The position numbers were made by a program. A stretch of 64,000 nt of DNA from Candidatus Fervidifonticultor secundus (lineage in GTDB: Bacteria > Sysuimicrobiota > Sysuimicrobiia > Sysuimicrobiales > Humicultoraceae): the NCBI GenBank assembly GCA_031459385.1, contig JAVKIP010000010.1:1-64000 (forward strand). Direction: 5' to 3'. Shown piece by piece: positions 49,901 to 58,900 of this stretch. Numbering within the stretch: the stretch's first letter is position 1; each line of letters begins with the position of its first letter.

Positions 49901-52900
49901 CCGCGCGATCGTCGGCGCGACCTGGGGATGCCGGATCCGGCTCACCAGGTCGAACGCGGTCGCGAAGAGGTAGTCGCCCAGCAGCACGGCGATCTGGTTG
50001 CCCCAGAGCACATTGACCGTGGAGACACCGCGGCGCAGATCGGAGGCGTCGATCACGTCGTCGTGGACCAGCGAGGCGATGTGGATCAACTCCACGGCCC
50101 CGGCCAACCAGAGGCGCTGCTCGTCGGCCCCGCCCGCCGCCGCCGCCGACAGCAGCGCCAGCGCCGGGCGGACCAGCTTGCCGCGCGAGGCCAGCACGTG
50201 CTCGACGAGCTCGCCGATGAAGGGGTCGTCGGTGCGCAGCTCGCGTCGCAGCAGATCGTACAGCCCCTCGAGGTCGTCGGCGACGGGCCGGTAGATCTCC
50301 TGGAGATCCAACGCCACGCTCAACGGTCCACCCTGATGGTCATCGCCATGCCGGCCTCGCGGTGGCCGGGGATGTTGCAGTAGGCGGTGTGCGCTCCCGG
50401 CGGCAGCTCGAAGATCGCGGTCCTGGTCTCCCCTGGCGGCACGCCGTCGATGGCCGCGCCCGGTATCGCGTCGACGACCAGGTTGTGCTCCACCAGCCCC
50501 TCGTTCCTGACCCGCACGGCGATCCGCCCGGCCCGCACCACGACCGAGGGCGGCGCAAACGCCCACTCGCGCGCGACCACCTCCACGGTCGCCGCCGGGG
50601 AGCGCTCGGGCGACCCGCTCCGCGGACCGCAGGCGCCGCCAACCAGTGCCAGCACCAGCAGCGCCGCGCGGTAGGCCCGCAGGCTCCGCCGGTGCCCTGA
50701 CCCCCTCTCTCCCGGCGAGAGAAGCCGCCGTCTCACGCCCTAGCCTTCAGGCTTCAGCGATGAGGCCGAACGACGCGACGAACGCCAGCAGCAGGAAGAA
50801 GAAGACGTAGAAGAGCAGGTAGGCCAGCCAGACGCGCAGCGGGCGCTTCATGCCCCTCCCTCCTCCGCAGGCTGGGCGGCGGCCGCCGGCCGCCGCGCGG
50901 GCCCCGTGCCGCTGGCTGCCGGCCCCAGGGCCCGGAGGCGCTCCACCATGGCCGCGATGTCGGCGAGAAACGCCTCCCGGTCGTGGAGCCCATGGGCCAG
51001 CATCTGCAGGCGCTCCGGCGGCACCCTGCGTCGCTGCAGCCGCCGCTGCAACTGGTCCACGCGCTCGCGCATCAGGTAGTTGCCCTCGCGGTTCAGGCAG
51101 TCGCCGTAGGGGCACCCGACCACGAAGACGCCGTCGGCGCCGGCCTTGAGCGCGTCCTCCAGCCAGCCTGGCCGGATGAAGCCCGAGCACGGGATGCGGA
51201 TGAGGACCACGGACGGGTGGGCGAGCAGCCGGCCGGCCGCATCCGCCAGGTCGGTCGTGGCCACCGCCCAGTCGCATACGAAGCCCACGATCCGGGGAGC
51301 CCAGGCGCCGTGCGCGGTCGATGCCTGCGCCGTCATGCCCGCACCGCCGCTGCCACCTGCACCGCCTCCTGCACGCGCCGCGTCACGTCGGCTTCCAGCA
51401 GACCCGGGAGTTCCAGCGCCTCGAACGGGCACGCGCCGATGCAGATGCCGCACTCGACGCACCGCGAGTCGATGACCACCGCCAGCAGCTTGCGGCTCGC
51501 CGCAGCCCGCGACAGGCCGGGGTGGGGCGACGGGACCATGACGATGGCGTTGTAGGGGCAGTCGTAGTAGCACAACTCGCAGCCCGTGCAGTTGCCGTCG
51601 ATGACCTGTGCCACACCCGCGTGCCGCACGCCCATCTCCCGCGGCGTCTCGCGGCTGAGATAGGGGATGACGAACCCCGCCCCCAGCGTCACTGCCACCA
51701 GGGCCACCACCAGACCGGGCGGCACGAAGCCGGCGAGCCAGAACGGCAGCAGGAAGAAGACGTCCAGCGGCATCGCCTGCGGGGCGGTTCCGGGCCGGGC
51801 CGGGACCCCGCCGACCGCCGGGATCACCGCCGCCAGCACCGTTACCAGCCCCAGGCTGACCAGCACCCAGGTGGCAGGCGGCCAGACCTTCGGATGGCGC
51901 AGCCGCACGTAGTGCCACCACAGCAGCACGTAGAGCAGCGACGCCGGTCCGACGTGCAGCAACAGAATGCGGGGCAGGGTGCCCTCCGACAGCCCGGCGC
52001 CGCCCACCAGCAGGCCGGCCAGCGCGTCGCCGACGGCCGGGATGGCCCGCAGCAGTCGGTCGAACAGGCCCAGCACGGCCAGCGCCCGCTCGTCCCATAC
52101 CAGGATGTAGCCGGTGGCGCCCACGAAGCCGCCGAAGATGAGCATGAACATCCCCGAGATCCACGGGGAGTCGCGCGAGAACAGGTACCGGTCGGTGAAC
52201 CAGTTCCGGAAGAGGTGCAGCAGGGCTGCCACGATGAACGCATCGGCCGCGTACCGGTGGATGCCCCGGATCAACCCCCCGTACGGCACCTGCTCGGTCA
52301 GGTAGACCACCGACGGGTGCGCGCCGCCGAGGCTCGGCACGTAGTAGAAGAAGATGAAGATCCCGGAGAGGACCAGGATGAACAGGAACAGGTTCGTGAG
52401 CCCGCCGGTGTAGTAGAGCGGATTCCAGTCCGTGGGGTAGATGCGGTTGATGCCCACGTCCAGGCGCAGGGTGAACCGTTGCAGCGCGGTCAGGGCTTTC
52501 CGGTACACAGGGCCCCCCTCACGGCACGGGCTTGACCCACCGCCCGCGCAGGTCGTCCTCCGCCTCGGCGCGGCGCGGCCCGATCGTCCCCAGCTTGCGG
52601 AGCAGCAGCAGGATCAGGCCGTAGACGATGAACAGCACACCCAGGGCGGCGCCGCCGAGCTGCCAGAACACGCGGCGCTCGGCGCTGCCCAGGGCCTCGC
52701 CCAGCACGATGAGCGCCGCGCAGGCCGCACCCACCACCGCGAGCCCCAGGACCCCGCTGGTGTACCTGCGGCTGCTGTCCTCCATCATGCCGATCCGGCA
52801 CCCCCCTGCGGGCGATCCGCCCGCCGGTCCAACCAGCGGTCGAACAGCGGCATCGGCCGACGCGTGCGGCCCGCGGTCCGGTCGGCCGCGTAGATGACGA

Positions 52901-55900: not shown

Positions 55901-58900
55901 ACAGCGACAGCGACGATCGCGGGGAGCACGCGCAGCGCGATCGTCAGCGAGCGGGCGGCTTCCATCGTCAACGGCATGAACGATTCCACGCCCTGCAGGC
56001 AACTCCTCCCCTGGCCCGCGCGGGGTCCCTGCCACGGTGTCGAGCGGCGGCTCCGATCAGATCCGTCGCCACAGCGTCCATGCGAGCCCGACGGCCAGGA
56101 GGCCCGCCAGGGTGCCGGCCGCGGTCGGTGCCGGCCATCGCCGCACGGGCGGGACGCCCGCGACGGTCAGCACCAGGTCGCCGGGGCGCAGGGCGCGCGC
56201 CCAGGCCCGCGCGTACCGCCTCCCCTCGCTCTCGAGTGGGGGCGCCGGCTGGAACTGCGGGGACCGAATCTCGGCCGGCGCGCCGGCGAACACCACCGCG
56301 CGGTCCACCGGCAGCCGGAGCGGACGATCGAGGACGGCCGCGCCCGCACCCGCCACGGCGTAACTGAACGAGAGCTGGTCGGCGCCGGGGCGCACGACGA
56401 TCCGGTCGCGGATCTCCCCGCGCTCCACGCGCGGCTGGTGGAAGCCGGCGTGGTAGCGCACGTACCGCGCTCCCTGCGGCAGGGGGATGCCGACATCGCC
56501 GCGGTATGTGCGTACCGTCGTGTTGCGCAGGTGCCAGACCTCGAAGACGCGCACGTAGCCCGCGTGCACCTCGACCACCATGCCCACCAGCGCCACGCGC
56601 AGCGGGACGCCGGATGCCACGTCGTACACCAGCAGCTCCACGCGGACCGGCCCACCCGCCACCACGACGTGCGCCGCGTAGACGACGCCGGCGTGGCTCG
56701 TCTGGACCAGATAGCGGCCGTCAGCCAGGCCGCGGAACGCGAAGCGCCCCGCGCCGTCGGTTCGGACCCGACCCACGTCCCGAGATCCGATGGGGCCCAC
56801 GGACACGAGGAGGACGGCCTGGCCCGCGGCAGACCGGCCGGTCGTGCCGTTGCGGACGACGCCGGCGATCGCCCCGGCGCTGGCCTCCGGCGCAGGCGAC
56901 GACCCGGAGGGCAGCGCGCCGGCTGCCGGTACGGCGGACGCAAAGATCGCAGGCAGCCAGAGCGCGACCAGTGCAGCGGCCAGGGGCGCGCGGCGCGCCG
57001 CTCTCCTCACGCGCCGCCTCCGTCCAGGTGCCGCGCCGCGCGGGCGGCCGCATCTTCGAGCGTCGCCCGCTGTGCGTGGTAGTCAGCGTCGCTCAGCTTG
57101 CCCGTGGCCCAGTCGAGCTCGAGGTCCTGGAGCGCGCGCAGCGCCACGGCGTGCGCGGCCTCCAGGGCCGCGCGCGCGTCGCCAGCCTCCACGGGCGCGC
57201 GGCGCCAGGTGGGGGCCAGCAGGTACCACGCTAGCGCCATGGCGGCGACGAGGAAGGCAGCCGCGGACGCGTCCTCGATCACGGCGCACCCGCCGCCGGC
57301 CAGGCTGCGGGCTCCCCCAGGGGCAGCGCGGCCAGGTGCCGCCGGCGGCGCTCGGGCAGCGCTGCGAGCAGCGCGCCGAGGGCCAGGATCCCGCCACCGG
57401 CCCACAGCCAGGACACCAGCGGATGGATCAGCACGCGCAGCGTCGCACGGCCCTGGGGCGTCCAGTCGGCCAGGATCACGTAGAGGTCTTCACGCGGGGA
57501 GGCCCGGATCGCCACCTCGTGCATCGGCTGCCCCTGGGTCCGGTAGAACAGGCGCCGGGGCCGTAGGTGGCCGAGCGCCCGCTCGCCCCGCCACACCGCC
57601 ACCGTGGCCTCGACGACGTCGATCCCCGGCCGCTCGGTTGCGTCCAGCCCCCGGAACTCGAGCGTGTACCCGCCGAACTGGAACCGTTCGCCCGCCCCCA
57701 CGGTCGCCTGACTCTGCGTGGCGAAGGCGCTGCTCCCGGCGACGCCCGCCAGCATCAGGAGCACGCCGAGGTGCACCGTGTACCCCCCGTAGCGGCGGCG
57801 GTTCCGCCAGACGAGCTGTCCCAGCGCCCGGGCCACGGGCTCGCCGCGCGCGACGCGCACCCGCATACCGCGCACCGCCTCCAGCCCGATCGTTGCCACG
57901 ACGAACAGCACCAGGACGAAGACCAGCAGCGCGCCCGCGGTCCGCACACCCGCAGCGGCAAGGACCGCGCCGCCCAGAAGGGCCGCCGCCGCCGGCCAGG
58001 CGAAGTTGCGCGCCAGCTGCTCGGGCGACGCCCGCCGCCAGGGCAGCAGCGGCCCCACCCCCATGAGCACCAGGAGGCCCACGGCGATGGGCGTCATCAC
58101 ACGGTTGAAGTACGGCGGCCCGACGTTGCTCTTCACGCCTTCGATCGCCTCGGTCAGCGCGGGGAAGATCGTCCCCACGAAGACCACGGCGGTGGCCACC
58201 ATGAAGAGCAGGTTGTTGGCCAGGAAGGCGGTCTCACGGCTCACCACCGCCTCGATGGCCGCCTCGCGCCGCAGCTGGTCCCACCGCCACGCCAGCAGGC
58301 CGAAGCCAACCAGCAGCACCACCGCCAGGAAGCTCAGGAACGCGGGGCCCACGGCCGACAGCGCGAACGAGTGCACCGACGCGATGATGCCGCTGCGCAC
58401 CAGGAACGTCCCGAAGAGCGTCAACCCGAAGGCCAGGATGACGAGCGCCACGTTCCACGTCGCCAGCATGCCGCGGCGCTCCTGGATCTGGATCGAGTGG
58501 AGGAACGCGGTCGCCACCAGCCACGGCATCAGCGCGGCGTTCTCCACGGGATCCCAGGCCCAGTAGCCGCCCCAGCCCAGGACCACGTACGACCACTTGG
58601 CGCCGAAGAGCAGGCCGAGCGAGAGGCACGTCCAGGCCACCAGCACCCAGCGCCGCGCCAGCGCCACCCAGGTTTCGTCGAGCCGGCCGGTCACCAGCGC
58701 CGCGATCGCGATCGCAAAGGGCACGCTCATGCCCACGAACCCCAGGTAGAGCATCGGCGGGTGCGCGGCCATCCACGGGTTGCGCAGCAGCGGGTTCAAG
58801 CCCTGCCCGTCGGGCGGCGGGGGCACCAGGCGTGCGAACGGGTCGCTGGCCCATGCCAGCATGCCCGAGAAGAACAGCGCCACAGCCAGGAGCACCACCG

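Follow-up and report, generated by a model that had tools for sequence, protein, structure and literature searches.

Proteins in which a cytochrome b is fused to a 4Fe-4S domain and an MvhD domain have been known since 2014, under the name PDWF-FeS clade. The fused family appears in publications of 2014, 2017 and 2026, beside eNOR-type oxidases, and a Ferrigenium preprint proposes that a protein of this kind is a quinol:NAD+ oxidoreductase. For Rieske/cytochrome b complexes of anammox bacteria, a role in NAD(P)H production has been proposed (PMC12954380). In the bc1 dimer, electrons are transferred between the two bL haems (PMC4330944). The locus reported here pairs a protein of the fused type with a one-haem cytochrome b next to a Rieske gene, an arrangement that we found in no published paper. 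The novelty claimed for this locus in a preliminary description was too wide, as the cytochrome b, 4Fe-4S and MvhD fusion has been in print since 2014.

We analysed a window of 64,000 nucleotides from Candidatus Fervidifonticultor secundus (contig JAVKIP010000010.1, positions 1 to 64,000). Positions 50320-57010 hold a closely packed run of genes, all on the minus strand, directly downstream of ccm cytochrome c maturation genes (57279-62021). The string begins with a gene for a 317-aa protein and continues with genes for a di-haem cytochrome c, a Rieske protein, a cytochrome b (b, g00450), two small membrane proteins, a second cytochrome b (b′, g00447), an MvhD-like protein (g00446), a 34-residue membrane peptide and a lipoprotein cupredoxin. 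From b through the cupredoxin gene, neighbours are separated by start-stop overlaps or gaps of 3-10 bp throughout. Open reading frames and Pfam matches confirm the earlier assignment of Rieske, g00450, di-haem cytochrome c, g00447 and g00446 to this interval.

The di-haem cytochrome c (55042..55989, minus strand; Pfam Cytochrome_CBB3 E 1.5e-17, Cytochrom_C E 2.6e-15) has haem-binding motifs at residues 83 (CAVCH) and 221 (CADCH) and would be the high-potential acceptor subunit. Of 12 sampled genomes of the phylum, 10 have its gene 5′ of the Rieske gene, and in the other two (L113, L116) the contig ends before that point. The Rieske [2Fe-2S] protein (54303..55001, minus strand) contains CPHLGC at 146 and CPCH at 182, and its profile matches are sub-threshold (Pfam Rieske E 0.0047, 17.2 bits against a cut-off of 20.3; NCBIfam TIGR01416 E 1.2e-8). 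The adjacency of the Rieske and cytochrome b genes is kept across sampled genomes and metagenome loci.

The first cytochrome b, b (53070..54257, minus strand; Cytochrome_B E 1.1e-32, Cytochrom_B_C E 8.6e-7), contains N- and C-terminal cytochrome b domains, the Qo motif S-D-W-Y and ligands for haem bL only (H87, H201). Arg101 and Phe215/Tyr216 occupy the haem bH ligand positions instead of His. In an alignment with cytochrome b6 (2zt9_A), H86 of b6 corresponds to H87 of b, H100 to R101, H187 to H201 and H202 to Y216. H87, H201, E213 and SDWY are invariant in all 59 operon-linked b orthologues. Of these proteins, 56 have R and 3 have K at position 101, and position 215 is occupied by F (27), Y (27), H (3), L (1) or W (1). 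At the site of the helix-C glycine on the bH side the residue varies, with L in 20, A in 16, G in 11, F in 6, S in 4 and C in 2. As a positive control, other cytochrome b homologues put through the same procedure have His in the bH columns. By these alignments, b is a cytochrome that has lost both predicted haem bH ligands in 59/59 operon-linked orthologues. This loss was overlooked in the preliminary description, which treated g00450 as an ordinary cytochrome b. Only three PF00033 matches occur in the genome, which is 97.6% complete. They are b, b′ and a second copy of b on contig C29 that is 84% identical and likewise has R101 and F215. The sole predicted bH site encoded in the genome is thus that of b′.

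The second cytochrome b, b′ (51333..52508, minus strand; Cytochrome_B residues 25-204, E 1.1e-26; Fer4_7 residues 306-364, E 2.1e-9), contains cytochrome b helices A-F, four haem ligands, the Qo-motif residue Asp249 and a fused 2x[4Fe-4S] ferredoxin domain (Cys 307, 310, 313, 317, 350, 353, 356 and 360). The ligand pairs H84/H98 and H185/H199 and the CxxCxxCxxxCP motifs at 307 and 350 are exactly as first claimed. The core had also been described as having four helices and no Qo-site part, but BLASTP aligns residues 15-291 with residues 18-307 of g00450 (30% identity, E 7e-36), a span that includes helices E-F and the Qo-motif aspartate. An AlphaFold2 model of b′ (pLDDT 90.4, pTM 0.87) matches solved cytochrome b chains over residues 14-294 (VIA-align, Z 22-27). 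We infer that the Fe-S arm lies on the cytoplasmic side. Among 151 b′-type sequences, all keep the four His, 150 keep the matching glycine and 150 keep the Qo-motif aspartate. The conservation of Asp249 hints that b′ may bind quinone itself, a feature that would be superfluous in a subunit serving only as a wire.

The MvhD/FlpD-like protein (50848..51336, minus strand) is encoded immediately downstream, its start ATG overlapping the b′ stop (ATGA). Its earlier identification as an MvhD homologue holds: Pfam FlpD matches residues 16-138 (E 9.1e-30, 103.6 bits against a cut-off of 22.3), and phmmer aligns it to solved MvhD (5odc_D, E 1.1e-22), with Cys21, 50, 75 and 80 falling on Cys. From this alignment, g00446 probably binds a [2Fe-2S] cluster. 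MvhD is joined to b′ in a single polypeptide in 12 of the 20 distant relatives that were scanned, which supports the view that the two proteins work together.

Synteny and co-occurrence in the phylum likewise support the assignment of b′ and the MvhD-like protein to the Rieske/cytochrome b genes. We detected g00447 in 82 of 94 genomes of the phylum; 79 genomes encode both b and b′, 11 neither, one b only and, at the thresholds used, three b′ only. In the single b-only genome, b is at a contig end, and two of the three b′-only genomes are less than 70% complete. All 12 sampled genomes show the order cytochrome c, Rieske, b, small ORFs, b′, MvhD, with contig ends truncating it in two. Among the 47 metagenome loci with a length of 7 kb or more, 41 share this order, at identities down to 36-40%. 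In locus L207, the 1.7 kb 5′ of b′ has no cytochrome b match; this locus and the b′-only genomes count against reading b and b′ as one complex.

With moderate confidence, we favour the interpretation that the operon encodes one asymmetric complex III, in which b would oxidise quinol and b′ would be the only onward path for the low-potential electron, ending in three cytoplasmic Fe-S clusters. Such an enzyme would be a menaquinol:cytochrome c (or cupredoxin) oxidoreductase of the Rieske/cytochrome b type in which two paralogous subunits share the task of cytochrome b. Subunit b would retain the Qo site (SDWY) and the outer haem bL, and the loss of the inner haem bH would leave it without a Qi quinone-reducing path of its own. 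Subunit b′ would keep both haems, its sixth helix ending on the cytoplasmic side and continuing into two [4Fe-4S] clusters, to which the MvhD-like protein would add its probable [2Fe-2S] cluster. After quinol oxidation at Qo of b, the first electron would pass through the Rieske cluster and the di-haem cytochrome c to the cupredoxin or an oxidase. The second would move from bL of b to bL of b′ across a b/b′ heterodimer and then to bH of b′. From there it would reach either a quinone at Qi of b′ or a cytoplasmic partner by way of the three Fe-S clusters, so that the Fe-S arm would form a cytoplasmic port on the low-potential chain. We infer the physical pairing of b with b′ and the bL-to-bL step; the latter is known between the monomers of bc1, whereas here it is proposed between b and b′. 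Electrons may flow through this port in either direction, as exit to a moderate-potential acceptor or as entry from a low-potential donor.

The operon could instead encode two separate enzymes: a Rieske/one-haem-b/cytochrome c complex that runs no Q cycle and an autonomous b′-MvhD module, which would use two haems and a separate quinone site on the P side to connect the quinone pool with a cytoplasmic Fe-S partner. A module of this kind would work like QmoC/QmoB, HdrED, NarI-NarH or di-haem succinate:menaquinone reductases. The eNOR-linked b′-FeS-MvhD clade indicates that b′-type proteins can work alone, since its members have no one-haem b partner nearby; of its 80 loci, 71 include COX1, 70 SCO1 and only one a Rieske gene. 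The retention of the Qo-motif aspartate and an invariant cd-loop W138/D139 are also consistent with two enzymes. Even so, we regard this alternative as rather unlikely. A b that has haem bL alone and offers the second electron no way out would make a strange enzyme, and yet its Qo motif is invariant; b and b′ are gained and lost jointly; and the Qo motif of b′ in the phylum has lost Trp, reading D-(V/I/L)-F in all but two of the 99 motif matches among 120 close homologues. The preliminary description had conceded that g00447 and g00446 might form a separate module, and the loss of haem bH in b, which ties them to the Rieske complex, answers that objection. Its proposal of a bc-type complex with an Fe-S exit or entry is supported as to the b′/MvhD pairing and the linkage to the Rieske/b genes and fails in its Qo-site statement and breadth of novelty.

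The same description proposed that the Fe-S arm moves electrons between quinol and soluble low-potential carriers of the ferredoxin type, in one direction or the other, which would constitute a quinol-linked route to ferredoxin in an aerobe. Transfer from quinol would proceed by bifurcation at Qo. The architecture permits a path from haem bH through 2x[4Fe-4S] to the MvhD cluster. Some relatives have a NuoF-like flavoprotein as the cytoplasmic end, its gene lying between two genes of the module in 11/80 loci, and others have a fused FAD/NADH domain. The Ferrigenium proposal and the anammox proposal point the same way. We nevertheless consider this reading improbable. Menaquinone lies at -74 mV, a low-potential Rieske near +150 mV and ferredoxin at -420 to -500 mV. 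With these values, the second electron would start near -300 mV and have to move inward, against the membrane potential, which puts ferredoxin out of reach as an acceptor; its reduction by the Fe-S arm is doubtful on energetic grounds. Entry of electrons from reduced ferredoxin is feasible, but the operon includes no ferredoxin, HdrA-like or flavoprotein gene. We found no cytoplasmic partner for the MvhD-like protein in the genome, where the only other FlpD match lies within an unrelated polyferredoxin and the [NiFe] hydrogenases are not Mvh-like in appearance.

The neighbourhoods of the module bear on a further, very improbable explanation, in which b′-MvhD is no catalytic subunit but serves maturation or maintenance, carrying reducing power from the cytoplasm to the other side of the membrane. 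Copper, haem or cysteines might be kept reduced in this way during assembly of cytochrome c, cupredoxin or haem-copper enzymes. In this it would resemble the cupric reductase CcoG, which likewise combines membrane helices with two [4Fe-4S] clusters and an Ig-like domain. Besides the upstream ccm genes, this explanation draws on the eNOR-linked clade. There the gene is flanked on one side by SCO1 (70 of 80 loci) or haem O synthase (42 of 80) and on the other by the gene for a periplasmic beta-sandwich protein in which His, Cys, Met, Cys and His are conserved. One relative (P0178) is fused to SCO1, and haem biosynthesis genes follow the module in L151. A maturation role would leave unexplained both the loss of haem bH from b in every case and the translational coupling of b′ inside a string of structural genes, and the distant loci L211, L203 and L151 show no ccm linkage.

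Four genes that the preliminary description did not include (small1, tm89, tiny34 and the cupredoxin gene) share the same tight string. Small1 (52785..53066, minus strand; 93-aa membrane protein from a translated ORF) starts 3 bp past the b stop, and its own stop overlaps the start of the next ORF; small1-like ORFs are visible by eye at the same position in distant loci (L151:4437-4730, L203:6176-6568). Tm89 (52519..52788, minus strand), an 89-aa small membrane protein ORF with no Pfam family above cut-off, lies between b and b′ in 10/12 sampled genomes (tblastn). Tiny34 (50747..50851, minus strand), a 34-residue single-helix membrane peptide, overlaps the MvhD stop with its start (ATGA) and is matched directly 3′ of the MvhD gene in seven of the 12 (tblastn). 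The lipoprotein-type cupredoxin, a blue copper protein (50320..50736, minus strand; Pfam Copper-bind E 5.5e-5, 24 bits against a cut-off of 21.2), has candidate ligands H84, C120, H125 and M130 and is likely a periplasmic electron carrier. It follows tiny34 in five sampled genomes (L107, L109, L110, L111 and L116) and is missing or replaced in the rest.

The 317-aa protein (56057..57010, minus strand) has a signal or anchor segment and a carboxypeptidase-regulatory-like beta-sandwich (Pfam CarboxypepD_reg E 7.8e-7, 29.8 bits, below the cut-off of 32.3). Its gene lies 5′ of the cytochrome c gene in three of 12 sampled genomes (L107, L108 and L112; tblastn) and is similarly placed in several metagenome loci. 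Directly 3′ of the cupredoxin gene is a HepT-like polyprenyl diphosphate synthase gene (49346..50310, minus strand, start uncertain; Pfam polyprenyl_synt E 3.8e-64; NCBIfam GerC3_HepT E 4.1e-65, sub-threshold), which is found downstream in 9/12 sampled genomes and may be co-transcribed with the operon.

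The operon lies on the minus strand, and the coordinates assigned to it in the preliminary description, which are window coordinates, are correct. It begins with a secreted or anchored beta-sandwich protein of 317 aa (ORF at 56057-57010), a di-haem cytochrome c (55042-55989) directly upstream of the Rieske gene, the Rieske protein itself (54303-55001; CPHLGC at 146, CPCH at 182) and the cytochrome b g00450 (53070-54257), hereafter b. Two small membrane proteins of 93 aa (52785-53066) and 89 aa (52519-52788) follow, and then another cytochrome b, which carries a fused 2x[4Fe-4S] domain (g00447, 51333-52508), hereafter b'. 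The remaining genes, also on the minus strand, encode the MvhD/FlpD-like protein g00446 (50848-51336), a membrane peptide of 34 residues (50747-50851), a lipoprotein-type cupredoxin (50320-50736) and, last in the string, a polyprenyl diphosphate synthase. From b through the cupredoxin, genes are 3-10 bp apart or have overlapping start and stop codons, with ATGA overlaps at the b'/MvhD and MvhD/peptide junctions. ORFs resembling ccmF, E, C, B and A (cytochrome c maturation) adjoin the operon upstream. The window has a G+C content of about 73%, and the closest database proteins carry Armatimonadota MAG labels.

An apparent 281-bp gap between b and the 89-aa protein is the 93-aa ORF, which has a hydrophobic segment and starts 3 bp past the stop codon of b. 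By eye, a (F/Y)-x-I-Y-(A/F)-(A/E)-(D/E) stretch is common to small ORFs at the same place (L151:4437-4730 and L203:6176-6568, in distant loci). A promoter and terminator scan gave no promoter-like site in 48000-57600 and three terminator-like sites, all within genes. Contigs of the hot-spring metatranscriptome X1 cover 28 of 30 bins, mostly 85-95% alike, and thus come from relatives. A single near-identical contig of 195 bases spans the Rieske/cytochrome b junction (n=1; such contigs cannot prove a single transcript).

The two cytochromes b differ in their haem ligands. Alignment of b with cytochrome b6 (2zt9_A, E 1e-33) places H87 and H201 on the outer-haem ligands H86 and H187, and R101 and Y216 on the inner-haem ligands H100 and H202. 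We compared b with 58 operon-derived orthologues (n=59 in total). No variation occurs in H87, H201, E213 or the Qo motif S-D-W-Y (59/59); the motif stands in the context P-I-L-S-D-W-Y-F in g00450, and variants of it are catalogued in PMC4122944. Position 101 is Arg in 56 proteins and Lys in 3, and position 215, the column of H199 in b', is F (27), Y (27), H (3), L (1) or W (1). On its bH side, helix C of b no longer keeps the glycine (L 20, A 16, G 11, F 6, S 4, C 2), which 150 of 151 b' proteins retain at the matching position. The same procedure, applied as a positive control to unrelated cytochrome b homologues (L212, L213 and L019), returned His at these columns. The bL pair (H87, H201) provides the only haem ligands in g00450, and the full set of four His occurs only in g00447; the standard description of one cytochrome b (or b6 plus subunit IV) with four His ligands does not fit g00450. 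Judged by its ligands, haem bH is lost from b in all 59 orthologues. The former haem pocket may be occupied by an Arg101-Glu213 pair, which is a guess on our part.

The genome itself (97.6% complete, 5.5% contamination) has three matches to PF00033: b, b' and a copy of b. Since both copies of b are without bH ligands, b' carries the organism's only bH site. The operon and the copy account for all PF00033 cytochrome b genes of the genome, which has no other kind, and it encodes one COX1-type haem-copper oxidase. Electron transfer from quinol to this single oxidase therefore probably depends on the operon. The copy of b, on another contig (C29:3-1118), is cut by the contig end; it is 84% identical to b and also has R101 and F215. 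G+C is 69.2% for that contig and 71.4% for the window's contig, and the copy could come from a co-binned relative, given the 5.5% contamination, or be a paralogue.

The Pfam matches, four haem His and two cluster motifs previously assigned to g00447 were all confirmed. It had also been said to consist of a four-helix core with no Qo-site part, which our alignments contradict: BLASTP pairs residues 15-291 of b' with 18-307 of b at 30% identity (E 7e-36). Helix E, the ef loop and helix F all lie within the aligned part, and 'PLDVFFL' of b' falls on the Qo motif 'LSDWYFL' of b. An AlphaFold2 model of b' (37-row alignment; pLDDT 90.4, pTM 0.87) matches solved bc1 cytochrome b chains over residues 14-294 (Z 22-27, 262-282 residues aligned), and its match to cytochrome b6 covers merely about 190 columns. 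The four haem His, W138 and D139 of the cd loop and the eight cluster Cys are invariant among 151 b' family members, and Asp249 is retained in 150 of them. The residue after the Qo Asp varies across these 151 proteins (W 68, P 23, L 18, V 10, A 10). The region reads L-D-V-F in the window, and the phylum-level motif is without Trp: of 120 close homologues, 21 gave no pattern match and 97 of the 99 motif matches have D-(V/I/L)-F. There is no conserved Qi-type His after H199, where the family consensus is H-x-x-R-x-x-R-P. The cytochrome b N-terminus starts at the membrane's n-side; with six helices, the ferredoxin domain of b' and the MvhD-like protein would thus be cytoplasmic.

Our searches agree with the earlier assignment of g00446 as an MvhD homolog. 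It matches Pfam FlpD (PF02662) over profile positions 1-123 with 103.6 bits (cut-off 22.3), and alignment to the solved MvhD 5odc_D (E 1.1e-22) pairs C21, C50, C75 and C80 with Cys residues that we take to be the [2Fe-2S] ligands. A full HMMER search returned 219 representatives at E<=1e-30, and 130 of the best 150 of these are 468-792 aa long. Cytochrome_B, Fer4 and FlpD occur in one chain in 12 of 20 relatives scanned, and relatives at 30-37% identity have such fusions. These fusions are stronger support for a putative g00447-g00446 interaction than the predicted interface is.

The operon has no gene for a cytoplasmic partner of g00446. An ORF and Pfam scan of the operon, which used no HdrA-specific model, found neither an Mvh-type [NiFe] hydrogenase nor an HdrA-like flavoprotein. 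Four loci encode CCG-domain (HdrB/D-like) proteins, all of them on other contigs and away from the operon. We considered whether a cytoplasmic Mvh-type hydrogenase uses g00446 as its MvhD; this is not supported, as the operon has no such gene and the [NiFe] hydrogenase on contig C23 is without MvhD. At the locus of that hydrogenase (C23:13409-18975), four small membrane ORFs (about 90-100 aa, a single hydrophobic segment in each) stand between the genes of the large (625 aa) and small (429 aa) subunits. The only other FlpD match in the genome is in a long polyferredoxin-like ORF (C14:8916-12188; locus L002) that contains several Cys clusters. Its neighbours are a TorD-like chaperone ORF on one side and a Tat-signal DmsB-like 4Fe-4S protein on the other. 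This polyferredoxin may be a molybdoenzyme accessory.

We searched 94 species genomes of the phylum, which form one order in GTDB, for b' (E<=1e-30) and the b orthologue (E<=1e-80), and identified them in 82 and 80 genomes, respectively. Both genes are present in 79 genomes, neither in 11, b alone in 1 and b' alone in 3; without two unpublished genomes that encode both (G016 and G024), the counts are 77, 11, 1 and 3 of 92. The b-only genome (G010) has the gene at a contig end, and the b'-only genomes are 69% (G014), 64% (G074) and 94% (G072) complete. Five genomes without b' (94-97% complete) are also without the b orthologue, and two of these five encode a cytochrome b 35-37% identical to b in which the His ligands are retained.

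The order cytochrome c, Rieske, b, 89-aa membrane protein, b', MvhD is found in 12 of 12 sampled genomes, which represent six families; contig ends truncate L113 and L116. The 34-residue peptide comes next in 7 of the 12 and the cupredoxin is present in 5. In three loci of family f5 (L114, L115 and L118), the cupredoxin is absent after the MvhD gene and a cytochrome c-like match is located roughly 2 kb beyond; a different periplasmic carrier may have taken over here. Outside the phylum, we examined 47 metagenome loci with a length of 7 kb or more, and Rieske and b genes lie upstream of b' in 41. Of the remaining six, two have b at a contig edge, three have less than 0.5 kb of upstream sequence, and one (L207) has 1.7 kb upstream of the b'-type gene (L207:1-1706) with no cytochrome b or Rieske match. 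The pairing may not hold at this locus, or the gap may just be wider. Three distant loci (41-51% G+C) have Pfam matches for a FixO-type cytochrome c, a di-haem cytochrome c, Rieske, b, one or two small ORFs, b' and FlpD; FixS is recorded for two of them, L211 being the locus scanned for it.

Every complex III enzyme examined to date is a symmetric dimer in which the second quinol electron goes back to the quinone pool. Because a Qo cytochrome b with the outer haem only has no other exit for that electron, b would need a neighbouring haem. Dimers of bc1 pass electrons between their two bL haems, according to the available text of PMC4330944. The simplest reading of the complementary loss, strict co-inheritance and tight operon is that b and b' form a heterodimer, and on balance we favour it, on the basis of sequences, a single predicted monomer and gene context. 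In such a heterodimer, one electron would pass from the Qo site of b to the Rieske protein, cytochrome c and then the cupredoxin or oxidase. The other would pass from bL of b to bL of b', on to bH of b', and from there to a Qi site of b' and/or three Fe-S clusters.

The preliminary description proposed a quinol-linked route to or from ferredoxin. Published potentials, as given in the available text, are -74 mV for menaquinone, -420 to -500 mV for ferredoxin and near +150 mV for a low-potential Rieske protein (the last in PMC4122944). The bifurcated electron would start near -300 mV and must go inward against the membrane potential, so exit to ferredoxin looks unfeasible and we consider this route unlikely. 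Exit to a moderate-potential acceptor and entry from a low-potential donor are, by our inference, both possible. Returning to the b/b' heterodimer, we tentatively suggest a more specific form, a complex III without a Q cycle in which the low-potential electron would exit through the three Fe-S clusters to the cytoplasm and the 'bus-bar' bL-bL step would be obligatory.

If b and b' form one enzyme, cytochrome b can be split in two, with one half oxidising quinol and the other acting as a haem wire. Transfer between bL haems, shown so far in engineered bc1, would then be the normal route, and the complex of an oxygen respirer would be wired directly to cytoplasmic iron-sulfur chemistry. Should the electron leave to the cytoplasm, respiration to oxygen would directly yield cytoplasmic reductant. 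This bears on how quinone-based bifurcation is tapped, which is also a question for the anammox complexes.

Canonical complexes are homodimers of one cytochrome b bearing both haems. The operon shares with bc1, b6f and the menaquinol bc complexes of Gram-positives the Rieske CxH...CxxH motifs, a c-type cytochrome, a Qo motif containing Asp and the cytochrome b fold, and it differs in that the Qo subunit is without bH ligands and the sole bH site is on a truncated second subunit ending in Fe-S clusters. The Rieske protein scores below curated profile cut-offs (Pfam 17.2 against 20.3 bits; also below in NCBIfam). High-potential acceptors are encoded alongside, with the di-haem cytochrome c upstream and the cupredoxin downstream. 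Alignments inspected by eye show no haem ci cysteine (Leu36 in b, Tyr33 in b'). Di-haem membrane cytochromes b also link a P-side quinone site to cytoplasmic Fe-S clusters in QmoC-QmoB, HdrE-HdrD and NarI-NarH, and QmoB terminates in an MvhD-like domain. QmoC, HdrE and NarI belong to other cytochrome b families, whereas b' has a bc1/b6f-type fold; the likeness is thus analogy and not membership. The Asp-type Qo motif PDWY goes with menaquinone and a low-potential Rieske protein (PMC4122944, available text).

For the anammox Rieske/cytochrome b complexes, the low-potential electron has been proposed to be sent to a cytoplasmic acceptor (NAD(P)H), as opposed to a plain Q cycle (PMC12954380). These complexes have other added subunits and serve an anaerobic, hydrazine-based metabolism, and the available text of PMC12954380 makes no mention of a cytochrome b minus haem bH. 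The closest precedent we found for a lost bn ligand is the cyanobacterial 'subfamily K' (PMC5600118, available text), in which the haem-ligating His of helix 2 is replaced, the bn-side glycine is missing and the haem number is left open. Its members, which are short additional copies, have Glu or Gln at the site and, in that text, no described Fe-S-fused partner. Here, in contrast, Arg or Lys occupies the position, neither bH ligand is left, and the organism has no other Qo-bearing cytochrome b.

The combination of cytochrome b, 4Fe-4S and MvhD is known from the PDWF-FeS clade of Kao and Hunte (2014), reported from Magnetospirillum and Turneriella (PMC4122944); g00447 and g00446 are a split form of it. 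We guess that this clade is probably 'subfamily H' of the large cytochrome b-domain proteins of Dibrova et al. (2017; PMC5600118). No function is known for either group in the available text of the two papers. The published PDWF-FeS cases are single polypeptides with the motif PDWF and a gene cluster without Rieske (PMC4122944, available text), whereas the window has a split form with LDVF and a one-haem partner, and a Rieske gene is present in the operon as in the 41 related metagenome loci. The fusion family had already been published, so the preliminary description claims novelty too broadly; the split, Rieske-linked form paired with a one-haem cytochrome b is in no paper found in the literature searched. 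The main text of the CSP1-3/Sysuimicrobiota paper (PMC11604079), on the phylum to which this genome, by its names, would belong, does not contain the terms cytochrome b, Rieske, complex III or bc1.

A 2026 preprint describes an eNOR operon of Ferrigenium that encodes a cytochrome b-[Fe-S] protein and a cytochrome b-[Fe-S]-FAD-NADH protein and proposes a quinol:NAD+ oxidoreductase (bioRxiv 10.64898/2026.01.22.701106, available text). By architecture, the proteins of this Ferrigenium straubiae operon belong to the same family, and its order of eNOR II, eNOR I, haem O synthase and sco1 fits the long-form loci that we identified (subunit II, COX1, UbiA, SCO1, module). The Ferrigenium context is an NO-reductase-type haem-copper enzyme with neither a Rieske complex nor a one-haem partner. 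Such eNOR-linked relatives, together with the conserved Asp249, would fit two separate enzymes within one operon; haem loss in b argues against this arrangement, which we regard as rather unlikely.

A peptide pattern from the fused forms occurs in 558 species genomes (Nitrospinota, Nitrospirota, Alpha- and Gammaproteobacteria, and others), and a b/b' heterodimer would bear on the role of this large family beside eNOR-type enzymes. We kept 80 loci, which encode COX1-type proteins (71 loci), SCO1 (70 loci), haem O synthase (42 loci) and Rieske (1 locus). A maturation or reductase role of b'-MvhD would be in keeping with ccm, SCO1 and haem-synthesis neighbours; we consider it very improbable, and prefer the b/b' heterodimer. 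A protein or domain with a membrane helix and a beta-sandwich follows the MvhD part in 77 of the 80 loci. In the long form, the confident model of this periplasmic C-terminal domain (pLDDT 92.1) has matches to generic Ig-like sandwiches only (best Z 9.1), and we assign it to no family.

In the oxidase-linked clade, the membrane helix and the Ig-like sandwich of about 140 residues are fused to the MvhD part or encoded by a separate gene (L018:9564-10076 and 21 homologues). Nearly invariant in the sandwich are His50, Cys58, Met73, Cys79 and His126, which together resemble a metal (copper?) site. A NuoF-like flavoprotein is encoded in 11 of the 80 loci and lies between two module genes where the locus is fully covered. 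These loci (L005, L006, L008, L011, L019, L058 and others) come from Nitrospinota, Nitrospirota and 'Deltaproteobacteria' MAGs, and their NuoF-like FMN/NADH protein is flanked by paralogous cytochrome b-FeS-MvhD genes. Next come an opposite-strand rhodanese gene and a divergent COX1-like gene, and L005 also encodes a DUF2249 protein. Other family members carry further domains: SCO1/SenC is fused N-terminally to the cytochrome b-ferredoxin protein in P0178 (676 aa), a class I cytochrome c domain follows the MvhD part and a membrane helix in P0144 and P0160 (746 and 763 aa), and a pyridine-nucleotide-disulfide-oxidoreductase dimerisation domain follows the ferredoxin part in P0173 (446 aa).
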